Shown piece by piece: positions 56,640 to 60,400 of a stretch of DNA of 64,000 nucleotides (positions within the stretch are counted from its first letter, which is position 1; the number at the start of each line of letters is the position of its first letter). The notes under the pieces were generated by a model that did not search any database, was not told the origin of the DNA, and worked only from the letters and a program-made list of their open reading frames with translations. The stretch comes from a virus. The stretch spans positions 263,296 to 327,295 of IMG/VR virus record IMGVR_UViG_3300028800_000001, one strand, 5' to 3'. A program made the position numbers and the translations under genes.

Positions 56640-56981
56640 ATAGAGCGCACTTCAATGATCTTTGCAAAAGCTGCGTACGAGCCAAACTGATAGTCGTTTC
56701 ACTGACGGGTTGTGAGCAAGGTACTACGTTTTTTCAAATACCGGATGCGATCCCTGATGAGGTGATTATTCAAATTGAATGCGAGAGTCAGTCAATCAGT
56801 TTTTCAATTTAGAAGTATGAGTCAGAAGAGATTGTTTTTTCAACGTACGCGTACGAAACGAATTCTGCGTCTCTTCGCTTACCAAGCTTGAACCAATTCT
56901 TACGTTTTTCAAAAGTTTCGTGTGAATCAGGAGCATTGTTATCTCAACAAGCTTGTTTGAACCAGAAAGGAACACCAGAGA
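56640..56981 (+). repeat. left arm of the degenerate tandem-repeat field (about 8 units of GTTTTTCAA-N5-9-G(T/C)GTGA(G/A)TC(A))
   Basis: Units include ctgcgtacgagcc; ttgtgagcaagg; gttttttcaaataccggatgcgatcc; tcaaattgaatgcgagagtcag; gtttttcaatttagaagtatgagtcag; gttttttcaacgtacgcgtacgaaacg; gtttttcaaaagtttcgtgtgaatcagg. Confidence 0.6.
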
Positions 56982-57866
56982 GTGCCCAGAAGTACCATTT
57001 CAAAGAAGTTTAATGATGAGCTCATTGTCGAACTTGGTGAGCCGGAAACGTCCCGCATTACTGAGTTGCGCCTCACCAAAGATTTACAAAAGGCAGCAGC
57101 TCTTCTTGGCCGTGAAGAAGCTCGTTATTACGTTGATATGTACTATAACTTCCAACAATTGCGGATGGGCGCAGGATCACAGATCCGTCAGATGCAGTTG
57201 ATTGGCGAACCATCCATGATGCTTCAGTGGACGTTTACGCTCTATGAGCAGATTGAGAATGATATCAAGAGTGCACTAAGTATCTATGCTAAGGGGAACA
57301 TTGTAGGTCGCTGGGCCATGAGCAATCCTGGCATTGGGCCGGTTATTGCCGCAGGATTACTTGCCCATATTGACATTACCCGCTCGACCTACGCCGGTAA
57401 CCTCTGGAGCTTTGCAGGACTTAATCCAAAGGTGAAGTGGGAGAAGGGGCAAAAGCGCCCCTGGAATGCAGCACTCAAAGTGCTCAGTTGGAAGATAGGG
57501 CAAAGCATGGTGAAAGTATCGAATAACCCCAATAGTGTCTATGGCCCTCTGTATAAGCAGCGCAAAGTCTATGAGCAAGAGAAGAACGAGAACATGGAGT
57601 TTGCTGAGCAGGCAAAAATGATTCTGGCGACCAAGAAAATCGGCAAAGAGACCGAAGCCTACAAATGGTACGCGATGGGTAAGTTGCCCCCTGCGCACAT
57701 CCAGGCGCGTGCCGAGCGCTGGACAACGAAGATCTTTTTGAGCCACTACCATGCGGTTGCCTATGAGATTGAATATAAAAAGCCCAGTCCAGAGCCCTAC
57801 GCCCTGGCGTATCTTGGGCATCAGGATATGATCCCAGTTCCCAATTGGCCTCTGATTGAGGAGTAA
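56982..57866 (+). CDS. HhH / Transposase_20-like (IS110-family C-terminal domain-like) protein lacking a DEDD/RuvC-like domain (294 aa, GTG start)
   Basis: WAMSNPGIGPVIAAGLLAHIDITRSTYAGNLWSFAGLNPKVKWEKGQKRPWNAALKVLSWKIGQSM parallels IS110 Tnp_20 (PGIG HhH, a..AGL.P......G.....GN..LR..L...). The N-terminal 110 aa are a coiled coil with no D-E-D-D residues. Confidence 0.45.
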   Translation: MPRSTISKKFNDELIVELGEPETSRITELRLTKDLQKAAALLGREEARYYVDMYYNFQQLRMGAGSQIRQMQLIGEPSMMLQWTFTLYEQIENDIKSALSIYAKGNIVGRWAMSNPGIGPVIAAGLLAHIDITRSTYAGNLWSFAGLNPKVKWEKGQKRPWNAALKVLSWKIGQSMVKVSNNPNSVYGPLYKQRKVYEQEKNENMEFAEQAKMILATKKIGKETEAYKWYAMGKLPPAHIQARAERWTTKIFLSHYHAVAYEIEYKKPSPEPYALAYLGHQDMIPVPNWPLIEE

Positions 57867-57879
57867 GTACTATGATGCG

Positions 57880-60400
57880 CACATCTTTTTCTGGTGTGCG
57901 CCCCGTGTGAATCAAATCAGGAACGCTTCAAACCGCTTGTATGAAGAGATATGTAAGATGTTTGAGTAAAAAATCTTGGTTCTTTCGAAATGACCGTACG
58001 AACGAGTCTTTGCGCTTTTCAAGCAAGGCGTGTGAACAAGAATGACAGTTTTTCAAGGTAGAAGTATGAGTCAGGTGTGTTCGTTTTTTCAGGAAAGGGA
58101 TGCGAGTCTAATTTACAGCGTGTTCAAAAAAAAAGTGTATGAGTAAGACAGGTCTGATCATTCAAGAAAGGTGTACGAACCGCCCATGAGGTGTTTCAAG
58201 TGGTGCGTGTGAACTATTCCTAGCGTGTTTTTAAAATAGCCGTGTGAACCGAATAAGTTGTTTTCCCAATGAAAGGGTATGAATCGCTCCTGGCGTAGAG
58301 CAAAATTACTGTATGAACGATACATCAAGTTGTTTCAAAAAAGTCGCGTGAGCACACACGCTTTGGTTGAGGCAATACATGAGAGCGAATTTTTGGATAT
58401 GGAGAGGGGTCAAGATAGAGGAATGAGTTATCTTTCACCTGCGCTTTCAGAGAAAGGGTACGAATCAGTTTAATCGTCTTTTCATTTCATGAGCATGAGC
58501 GAACTTTTGTGTAGCGTCAAAATTCTGGTGCGAATTCAATTGCAAAGTTTTTCATACAAGTGGTATGAGTCATTCCACCTGGAGGTTCAATTTAACTGTA
58601 CGAGTCGTTTGGAATGCGGTTTCAAGAACGCTGTACGAGTCAAATCACCGGTTTTTCTATGCGGGATGGTGCGAGTCAATTAATATGTTTATCGTAAACG
58701 ATGTGTATGAACGGAAGGCAACGATTTTTTCAGGATATAGGTTTGAAGCAAGTTCCATGTTTTTCGAAGTAACCGTTTGAGCCATTAAGAGCGTCTCGGC
58801 CAGCGAAAAGGTATGAGCAGCAGGGGCAACGAGTGATCAGGACATAGGTGCGAAACACTACATTGATTGTAGCAAAATACCGGTTTGAATCAATTCGCGG
58901 ATGCAATCATTCTAATGGAGTGAGCAAACTATCAAAGTGGTTTCAATTAGTAGGTGCGATTCTTGTCCTGGGTCGTTTCTCAAGACACGTGAGAGCCAAG
59001 GAAAGTGGAGATCAATTTGTGGAGGCGAACCAATACGACAGTGTTTCATGGTTTACGTCTGAGCAGATATAAGGGATTTCTCATATCATATATACGAAAC
59101 AAGAAGCCAGTTTTCACGATTGACGTTTGAGTAAGAATTATTGTTTCTTCATAATGTACGTACGATTCATCTATCTAGTGTGTCAAAATTCAAGTAAGAG
59201 TCAGCAAGCCAGTTTTCACGGTTAACGTTTGAGTAAGGTGAAAGTTTTTTTCATAGCACAGGTACGAAACGAGAAGCCAGTCTCTCCATAATTGACGTTT
59301 GAACGCCATTCAGCAGTAATGCAGATGTGAGCCATGCTCCAGATACTTTTCATAAAGGGAGAGCGAGTCAATTGTATGTCGCTGCAATACATTGTTGTGA
59401 ATGAATGTAAGACGTACCTTCAAAGCGAGCGTATGAGTAAAAGGTTCAGTTGTCTCAAACTATGAGTACGAATGGATGGAATACGTGGCGCACCAAATTA
59501 AGCGTATGAGCAAAACGGTAAGGTTACTTCAGGATGAGTGAGCGAGTTCGAATAAGGGTAAGACTCAGTTTGTAGGTACGATCCAGGTTCCATGTAGACG
59601 CAAATAAGGGAGAGAGCCACTAAAAAGGTATGATCATCTAAGGGGAACGATCCATGTTAGCTGTCCGGTCACTGATCTGGTGTGAATAAACGCGGCTTGT
59701 TTTGAACAAATAGAAGGTATGAACTATTAGCGATGTATACTTCTTAGAAGGAGATTGAGTTCTTTACGATGTGCTTTCAGATTATTGGTACGAATTATTG
59801 GCGAAGTCTTTTCATAAAAGCCGAATGAGCAAGCAATGCTGTTTTTCAAATTGCTGGTGTGAGCAGATAGCTTTAGTTTTTCATAATCGGCGTGTGAGTC
59901 TTATAATGAGTCTGTTTGTACATGGTGCACGAGCCAACCATTCTGTAGAACAAAAAGGTGACGCGAATCATTTCTAAGGCGAGTTCAAGTATAATGTGTG
60001 AGTCGCAATGAGAAGTGCAGACAAATTGCATGTACGAATTGCAAAAGGTGTATACACAAGAGAATCGTGTGAGTCAGGAATTGTGTTTTTTCAAGTTGTA
60101 GCTACGAGTTATGATAAAAGTGTCTTTCAACTAAGCAGTGCGAACACAGGATAATTGTAGTGTAAGAAACTGGTGTGATCCTTGATAGTAGTCTTTTTAT
60201 TCAACTAGCGAGAAGCAAGAAAAGCCGTCTCCATCAATAAAGAAGTTTGAACGAAGCATGATGTTTCTTTCATGTAGGTAAGTGAATCAGTCGCTATGTG
60301 TTTCAAAATAAATGTATGAGTCCAGCGAGCTGTCGTATCAGATGTTGTCTACGAAACAACAATTATGTTATTACAAAATCCTTGTTTGAACCGAAAGGAG
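57880..60400 (+). repeat. main body of the degenerate tandem-repeat field (about 2.5 kb, several dozen ~30-45-bp units; consensus GTTTTTCAA-N5-9-GGTGTGAGTCA)
   Basis: Continuous run of units such as tttttcaaggtagaagtatgagtcagg; gttttttcaggaaagggatgcgagtc; gtgtttcaagtggtgcgtgtgaact; gtttttcaaattgctggtgtgagcag; gtttttcataatcggcgtgtgagtc; gtttcaaaataaatgtatgagtcc. No ORF above 75 codons. Confidence 0.65.

Follow-up and report, generated by a model that had tools for sequence, protein, structure and literature searches.

The 64,000-nucleotide (nt) stretch of viral DNA analyzed here (IMG/VR record IMGVR_UViG_3300028800_000001, positions 263,296 to 327,295; hereafter the window) contains, at 56640-60393 on the + strand, a field of degenerate repeats that is very probably a TIGR (tandem interspaced guide RNA) array served by a TasA protein (Table 1). 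With scarcely less confidence, the locus is assigned to the phage-carried, dual-repeat TIGR-Tas systems of the nuclease-free TasA type, including the mechanism proposed below. Systems of this kind have been known since 2025 (Faure 2025; Xu 2026), and the locus is thus a further member rather than a new class. In published TIGR arrays, 8-12-nt repeats of two kinds ("edge" and "loop") alternate, separated by spacers A and B of ~9 nt, and the array lies on the upstream and/or downstream side of a tas gene with a Nop domain; each spacer pairs with a different strand of an adjacent target, and the edge halves of the processed guide (TIGR guide RNA, tigRNA) are joined by a "box C/D" pair and one further pair (PMC12045711). 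All defining features of dual-repeat TIGR-TasA loci that can be tested in silico were found in the window, apart from the typical terminal terminator, which is absent, and a clear edge/loop pseudo-symmetry, for which the signs are mixed.

The field consists of two runs of a 35-nt unit split by a single gene, tasA, in agreement with an initial annotation, made from the nucleotide sequence alone, that had located the field and recognized this gene as its sole coding sequence. Gene calls in six independent assemblies include only tasA between 56640 and 60405, and no further open reading frame (ORF) of more than 74 codons is present in this interval. A dynamic-programming parse with two box matrices, together with a hand parse of 57905-58030, resolved ~78 units in total (8 upstream and 70 downstream of tasA), in keeping with the several dozen initially counted by eye. 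Each unit is composed of a 10-nt edge (GURYGARYCA), spacer A (~8 nt), a 9-nt U-rich loop (GUUUUUUCA), and spacer B (8 nt). Across 74 hand-chained and aligned copies the edge reads G (86%), T (80%), R, Y, G (100%), A (100%), R, Y, C, A; with numbering from 0, positions G4 and A5 never vary, and conservation is strong at G0, T1, and Y3. The second, T-rich box (consensus GTTTTTTCA) has its ..TTCA end exactly 8 nt upstream of the edge. Spacer B is 8 nt long in 67 of 75 parsed units, the mode for spacer A is 8 nt, and G4 and A5 are both intact in 74 of the 75. Because edge-to-edge distances range from 33 to 38 nt with a mode of 35, the tandem repeats first described as ~30-45 bp stand as repeats, but with a defined unit of 35 nt in place of that loose length; GANTC, said to be present in many cores, occurs in only 22 of 75 edges. 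The units run in a single direction (+ strand), which is that of the flanking genes. Edge and loop boxes both tend to begin with G-U and to finish with C-A, and the U residues of the loop replace the G:C pair of the TasR loop.

Model-free autocorrelation of 57870-60405 peaks at a lag of 35 (z 8.5 against shuffles), followed by harmonic peaks at 69-70 and 104-106 and joined by a peak at half the period, lag 18 (z 4.4); the upstream array has a period of 34-35 by autocorrelation (z 3.8), and six equally long control stretches of the window gave lag-35 z values between -3.1 and -0.3. A two-box position-weight scan at 12 bits, which is partly circular in that its matrix was trained on the same region, recovered 56 units in the region, against 4 elsewhere on the + strand (60 kb) and 6 on the entire - strand. 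Tandem Repeats Finder (minimum score 30) made no report in the region. Mean column identity between units is ~41%, which lies below the sensitivity of that program; the silence of a repeat finder, initially proposed as evidence against the repeats, is therefore a false negative that the period-35 autocorrelation contradicts. Rfam (E <= 1) likewise gave no match over 56300-61600, nor did a megablast comparison of a 10-kb piece of the window with 50,697 phage records.

The initial annotation had also considered that the region might be an assembly artefact. This it is not, because at least six independent assemblies contain the locus (ERZ27245394, ERZ27245395, ERZ27245399, ERZ27245620, JGI 3300031238, and SRR8543848), the spacing between tasA and the gene that follows the downstream array (gene2) is 3424 nt in every contig holding both genes, and aligned arrays are identical. 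Specifically, window positions 56400-61400 (5 kb compared) are 100% identical to contig ERZ27245399:k141_3240806, and the downstream array is identical to that of the window in both aligned copies, ERZ27245395 (full) and SRR8543848 (first ~870 nt); between copies whose downstream arrays are identical, tasA carries 4 substitutions.

If the units are processed into guides, the 3' half of edge i should pair with the 5' half of edge i+1, and not within its own edge. All 78 pairs of adjacent edges were counted. Between position 6 of edge i and position 3 of edge i+1, the combination is Watson-Crick in 66 cases and G-U in 9 (75/78 paired; permutation Watson-Crick mean 33, standard deviation 4); between position 7 of edge i and position 2 of edge i+1, it is Watson-Crick in 57 cases and G-U in 10 (67/78 paired; permutation mean 30.5, standard deviation 4). 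The same positions are at chance level within one edge or against edges i-2 and i+2, and against edge i-1 there is at most a weak value, for one pair only (p 0.024). An unbiased scan of 990 column pairs of the unit returned 6(i):3(i+1) (z 7.6) and 7(i):2(i+1) (z 6.1) as the only clear outliers. In a MAFFT alignment of 75 units (alignment A3), 92.5% of cells are paired (67.0 +/- 2.2 in shuffles), the covariation score is 0.910 (0.379 in shuffles), and 59 cells are changed on both sides (13 in shuffles); none of 500 shuffles attained the observed pairing or covariation, and the signal collapses if the partners are slid by one column. G:U-type combinations outnumber those of A:C type (19 vs. 6), which fits an RNA made from the + strand.

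A comparison with related genomes, as the initial annotation had recommended, recovered covariation between neighbouring edges in three further arrays from phages: L006 (31 edge repeats with a near-exact 36-nt period, TasA 61% identical, p 7e-4), L015 (39 edges), and L019 (18 edges). One compensatory change was found between orthologous units, T:A in the window vs. C:G in L015. Given the covariation between neighbouring edges, what looks like degeneracy in the repeats is for the most part compensated change in the two base pairs closing each guide; and because this Watson-Crick and G-U covariation links edges ~30 nt apart, the variable edge positions are under RNA constraint and not under DNA-binding-site constraint.

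The register of the guides can be approached through the system of TaTasR, whose published tigRNA1 is AGCCA-UGCAAGCCC-UGAAACCCA-UUGCCUUAG-UGCG. Since this oligonucleotide starts with AGCCA and finishes with UGCG, the TaTasR edge is UGCG^AGCCA. The window edge, U-R-Y-G^A-R-Y-C-A, matches this pattern, and its covarying positions are those of the TasR box C/D pair and the extra pair. By homology, the cut is placed between the invariant G4 and A5, which would yield a guide of 35 nt (5 + 8 + 9 + 8 + 5), and the pairing observed in the window would be the end-to-end pairing of a processed tigRNA, as in TaTasR. The array of the related locus L002 starts with a 5'-truncated repeat of the xxTGAATCA type and ends with a 3'-truncated copy and a terminator; these truncated ends mark the xxTGAATCA-type repeat, which is homologous to the 10-nt box of the window, as the edge.

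The gene inside the array had been described as encoding a helix-hairpin-helix protein; the gene itself is retained, and its product is reassigned as a Tas protein, for which sequence comparison and structural modeling indicate the TasA form. A phmmer search of the PDB gave 9mty_A as the best match (E 1e-13; entry title, TIGR-TasR with tigRNA and target DNA), then TasH 21kl_A (E 2e-10), with bridge-RNA recombinases far behind. In Pfam the only match is a weak one to Transposase_20 (the IS110-family C-terminal domain; E 2e-5), and the PHROGs label is "transposase." An AlphaFold2 (AF2) model built with 30 homologues is all-helical (pLDDT 85.6, pTM 0.82); when compared with the PDB by Foldseek, its top 10 matches are all cryo-electron microscopy structures of TasH or TasR (probability 1.0), followed by IS621/ISCro4. 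The alignment to TasR begins at TasR residue 117, past the N-terminal region that holds RuvC (location according to Faure et al.), and HNH domains borne by a 52%-identical homologue are not present in the window protein. Because the Nop fold is all-helical, HNH and RuvC are both lacking, and the TasR alignment starts at residue 117, the protein is assigned to TasA, the nuclease-free form of Tas. Y273 and H280 align with SpTasH Y289 and H296 at identical spacing, and H280 is invariant in 30 homologues; SpTasH uses Y289 and H296 to process its own precursor RNA (PMC13421893). As a separate observation, the tasA homologue of a related phage (L019:1-624, SRR29837717 contig) has an apparent intein, with ...EGFAVHN-C just before the conserved Nop motif WKIGQS.

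On the basis of published homologues, we propose that a single + strand transcript from ~56640 would carry the short array, tasA, the 2.5-kb array, and probably gene2. TasA dimers would bind each unit via its edge and loop repeats, and the conserved Tyr/His pair in the TasA C-terminal loop would cut each edge between G4 and A5, releasing ~78 tigRNAs of 35 nt with the order 5'-A-R-Y-C-A, spacer A (8 nt), GUUUUUUCA, spacer B (8 nt), G-U-R-Y-G-3', the ends of which would be held by the two base pairs R6:Y3' and Y7:R2'. The TasA-tigRNA complex would then bind double-stranded DNA (dsDNA) at a 16-bp site composed of spacer A and the reverse complement of spacer B, one spacer per strand. As TasA has no nuclease, the expected outcome would be binding without cleavage, such as transcriptional repression or blocking; this binding or repression at targets is held with less confidence than the identity of the array. 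The option of processing or binding sites on a long noncoding transcript, listed among those of the initial annotation, was in essence correct: the array would be a guide-RNA precursor with the gene for its processing and binding partner inside it.

Table 1. Features of the TIGR-TasA locus and of the wider window (window coordinates; edges are given by first position).
Feature	Position	Strand	Remarks
Sigma-70-like promoter (putative)	56607..56635	+	TTGCAA, 17 nt, TATAGT, TG before -10; consensus scan 9/12, extended -10
Divergent promoter (putative)	56535..56507	-	Consensus scan
Upstream TIGR array	56640..56964	+	Leading degenerate piece 56640-56674, then 8 complete units, 9 edges
Upstream edges	56675, 56710, 56745, 56781, 56815, 56851, 56886, 56920, 56955	+	From the parse
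Last upstream edge, GTTTGAACCA	56955	+	Adjoins tasA ribosome-binding site
tasA	56982..57866	+	294 aa, Nop-domain protein without nuclease domain
GC-rich hairpin	57877..57901	+	Directly 3' of tasA stop, no U tract; -18.1 kcal/mol, z -2.9 vs. shuffles
Downstream TIGR array	57905..60393	+	72 edges (57905 ... 60384), 70 units and one 21-nt half unit 57939-57960
Last downstream edge, GTTTGAACCG	60384	+	Adjoins gene2 ribosome-binding site
gene2	60406..61326	+	306 aa, near-orphan, same direction behind array
65-aa ORF	61323..61520	+	Overlaps gene2 stop by 4 nt; called in all assemblies; followed by hairpin 61513-61535
DUF3626 ORFs (five)	241-1029, 1162-2103, 6811-9870, 12188-13168, 13223-14170	-	Pfam
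LigT/2'-5' RNA ligase-like protein	5897-6814	-	
Tet/JBP dioxygenases (two)	15757-16665, 18293-19141	-	
P-loop nucleotide kinase	20097-20669	-	
Amino-acid:DNA transferase	22285-23190	-	
ResIII/DEAD helicase with intein	25984-28560	+	858 aa; PT-HINT and Intein_splicing, residues ~134-427
Protein with pro-kumamolisin activation domain	33622-35997		791 aa
SPFH/Band-7 protein	40465-41358		
RlaP RNA-repair nucleotidyltransferase	43680-44486		
MazG-like gene	53026-53346		

The promoter-like site ahead of the upstream array is the presumed start of the array-tasA-array-gene2 transcript. A consensus scan found no convincing + strand terminator before 61458, the only candidate being a weak 5-bp hairpin (58346-58361) inside an array unit. 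The GC-rich hairpin behind tasA may protect the 3' end of the tasA mRNA or attenuate read-through into the long array. An edge of the form GTTTGAACC(A/G) directly precedes the GAAAGGA-type ribosome-binding site of both tasA and gene2, an arrangement that may point to a coupling of edge processing, or of TasA binding, with the translation of the two genes; if these edges are cut, the tasA and gene2 mRNAs would begin at a processed edge. The 65-aa ORF behind gene2, for which a Pfam scan and PADLOC returned no family match, is likely the last gene of the operon.

gene2 has two close homologues and a distant one in 1.8-5.8 billion proteins; the distant relative came from an exhaustive HMMER search of 1.84 billion proteins, and its contig is too short for context. 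No match to gene2 was obtained in Pfam, PHROGs, PADLOC, or a PDB sequence search, and its N-terminal domain has weak structural similarity to ParB/KorB DNA-binding domains. In L014/L015, the gene2 homologues are immediately preceded by an array of the same kind, which reaches the contig end and has at least 38 units, and L019 has the full tasA-array-gene2 order with ~17 units. Some published systems have tasA and a parB-like gene in one operon, where the arrays lie upstream of the two genes, downstream of them, or between them (Faure et al. 2025). The window resembles these TasA-tasParB operons (Faure et al. 2025, fig. S14) in that tasA, the array, and a second gene are co-directional, with the array between the genes, and gene2 resembles their second protein by its weak ParB/KorB-like N-terminal domain; it may belong to this group, and a TasParB-like partner of TasA is a possible role for gene2. 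A bolder reading, in which gene2 is a new dedicated TasA partner and the 78 guides place a ParB-like, possibly spreading or bridging protein at many sites of the host or of rival genomes, is unlikely; if true, it would make the locus an RNA-programmed device for multi-site silencing or host takeover in a phage with possibly hypermodified DNA. As part of the same unlikely reading, closing pairs specific to each unit might help so long an array to avoid recombination and mis-pairing of guide ends.

The spacer pairs of all 75 parsed units are unique, and pairwise similarity among spacers equals the column-shuffled expectation, except for four pairs that old duplications account for; the spacers are rich in A (36%) and poor in C (14.5%). 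Diverged duplicate blocks exist within and between the two arrays: a 3-unit duplication (59093-59165 vs. 59195-59267, 73% identical), a block common to both arrays (56797-56842 vs. 58046-58091, 85% identical), and the last units before each gene (56937-56981 vs. 60366-60405, 81% identical). To judge from these blocks, the array has grown at least partly by duplication and divergence. Between phages, ~5 units (window 59866-60055; L015:1-190 / L014:1-115) are ~96% identical, whereas the adjacent gene2 proteins are only 56% identical; beyond these common units the arrays of the window and of L014/L015 diverge completely, and the junction is present in both independent assemblies. The pattern points to a swap of array segments between phages or else to strong selection on those guides. 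Arrays in the sampled relatives have ~6, 9, ~17, 31, and at least 38 units, vs. ~78 in the window. The 31-unit array of L006 wholly contains a 198-aa source-annotated "gene" (L006:8802-9398, - strand), probably a spurious call due to the repeats.

As established by the published TaTasR oligonucleotides, one strand of a target reads spacer A and then the reverse complement of spacer B. Searches for self-targets in the window with the 16-mers, in both geometries and with two single-strand controls, gave none with 0-1 mismatches and 2-mismatch matches at chance frequency; the 7.4 kb beyond the window gave the same null result, and outside the array single 8-mers show no enrichment. There is thus no obvious sign that the guides target their own phage. 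A 1-mismatch match in the L019 gene2 homologue was considered as an inter-phage target and rejected: its geometry is excluded by the TaTasR oligonucleotides, and ~0.3 such matches are expected by chance.

Among described systems, the locus is most like FpTIGR of Flavonifractor plautii (PMC12045711), with which it shares a solo Nop-domain Tas, a same-strand edge/loop array on both sides, a unit of ~36 nt, and edge halves that pair; FpTasA, a dual-repeat TasA, binds 36-nt processed RNAs (PMC12045711). Unlike FpTIGR-type systems, the window has ~78 units of 35 nt with 8-nt spacers and a U-rich loop, its repeats vary within the locus with unit-specific and compensated closing pairs, and its array runs into a downstream gene rather than a terminator. 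Published arrays "most often" contain 5-15 units (PMC12045711), and a 2026 TIGRFinder census counted 65,635 tigRNAs in 4,126 dual-repeat arrays (mean ~16), which flank tas on one side or on both. SpTasH of Salicola phage CGphi29 (PDB 9W03, 9W04, 21KL) is also phage-encoded, has 8-nt spacers and the Y/H dyad, and is the closest solved fold; unlike the window TasA it carries an N-terminal HNH nuclease and cleaves DNA, and identity is only ~22-29%. TaTasR (PDB 9MTY) shares the edge pattern and both base pairs (box C/D and extra), but differs in its RuvC nuclease, its spacers of 9 nt, its uniform repeats, and an A-rich loop that contains a G:C pair of its own. The accessible text of the supplement of Faure et al. 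contains none of the contig identifiers.

CRISPR arrays are comparable as tandem repeat-spacer arrays with a transcript that is cut into single guides; in contrast to their single 25-36-nt repeat, the window has two alternating, non-identical repeats of 9-10 nt and two 8-nt spacers per guide, directed to opposite DNA strands. No cas or adaptation genes were detected among the ORFs scanned with Pfam or by PADLOC, the latter applied to the three operon proteins only. The initial remark that the units are too numerous and too varied for iterons, and unlike CRISPR repeats, was borne out. Box C/D small (nucleolar) RNAs (s(no)RNAs) and IS110 bridge RNAs are likewise two-segment guide RNAs with a Nop-fold protein, and IS110-family recombinases are the next-best structural match; unlike these, the locus has no K-turn C/D boxes or DEDD recombinase domain, with no fibrillarin or L7Ae among the ORFs scanned, and its guides are in a tandem array.

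Several observations weigh against the assignment to a working TIGR-TasA system or against parts of the proposed mechanism. Only 29 of 75 units carry the 3' CA of the edge, and 25 of the 75 depart from the canonical pattern in one feature or more, so part of the array may be inactive; the U-rich loop repeat is without the G:C "box C/D" pair described for TasR loops. Both sub-arrays finish in a full edge followed by a ribosome-binding site and a gene, with no terminator; published arrays typically, though not obligatorily, end in a truncated edge repeat and an intrinsic terminator, and the L002 and L006 arrays do end in terminators. In the protein, Y273 is the majority residue among the 30 homologues without being invariant. 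With the established geometry, gaps of 0-3, and at most one mismatch, no target was found in 133 kb (the window, the 7.4 kb beyond it, and related loci), where ~0.9 would be expected by chance; searches of public databases have no power with 16-nt guides, which give tens to hundreds of chance matches per scan. Target binding or repression by TasA is known only for distant clades (PlTasA and MbTasA), of which PlTasA uses a stem-loop tigRNA.

Some of these points could be taken to mean that the array has decayed, with non-functional units drifting neutrally and their degeneracy reflecting erosion: the repeats are far more variable than in published arrays, and stretches such as 59297-59361 are badly degenerate. 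Neutral decay would, however, destroy the pairwise compensation that spans neighbouring edges in more than 90% of units, and it sits poorly with the near-universal retention of G4 and A5, with an intact tasA that keeps its catalytic residues, and with two aligned downstream arrays that are identical while tasA has 4 substitutions; we consider decay very unlikely. The guides might instead act on RNA, binding or masking host or phage transcripts in the manner of related box C/D small RNAs, since Tas shares its Nop fold and guide architecture with box C/D small nucleolar ribonucleoproteins (PMC12045711). This would accord with the lack of a DNA nuclease in TasA and of a DNA target in the scanned sequence, but TasA, TasR, and TasH of other clades bind dsDNA with both spacers on opposite strands, no fibrillarin or L7Ae-like gene is present among the ORFs scanned, and the edges are without RUGAUGA and CUGA boxes. 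An RNA-directed role for the same TIGR-TasA array is accordingly judged highly improbable.

The readings favoured by the initial annotation were of a DNA-level element, either a centromere-like array for ParB-type proteins or an iteron replication origin or packaging region. Such an element would show, as here, numerous short direct repeats within noncoding sequence, and the gene2 domain offers a weak structural likeness to ParB/KorB; the complementary covariation between positions ~30 nt apart, with G:U tolerated and A:C disfavoured, is nevertheless the signature of a single-stranded RNA. Moreover, every unit has one orientation, matching that of the flanking genes, and the embedded protein is of a family that binds guide RNA. 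The three ParB-like proteins once reported for the window find no counterpart, as no Pfam ParB/ParBc or Rep family was matched in ~44 ORFs scanned; palindromic parS-like sites were not found, and only two inverted repeats occur in 3.85 kb. Centromere, origin, and packaging region are hence barely credible, and the TIGR-TasA array is retained as the reading of the locus.

What distinguishes this TIGR-TasA array is its ~78 units, unit-specific compensated closing pairs, U-rich loop, and read-through into a conserved orphan gene. The locus represents a natural mutational scan in which the closing pairs are varied and compensated in each of 78 units; this supports the idea that this TasA reads the two closing pairs as structure and not as sequence, and the array places the likely cut at the invariant G^A. 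For annotation, a multi-kilobase "noncoding repeat field" missed by Tandem Repeats Finder and Rfam can be a TIGR array, and autocorrelation with a period of 35/36 combined with complementarity of neighbouring edges provides a simple diagnostic. The extreme array size, the phage context with its probable hypermodification cluster, and the conserved putative partner gene bear on the natural role of nuclease-free TasA systems.

Elsewhere in the window, 241-23190 (- strand) holds a probable DNA-hypermodification gene cluster. DUF3626, present here in five ORFs, reportedly appears in a paper on the Salmonella effector SopF. SopF is an ADP-ribosyltransferase, and so many SopF-like paralogues in a single phage are unusual. 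Other genes of the window are listed in Table 1, and a Macro-domain gene lies just past the window end.

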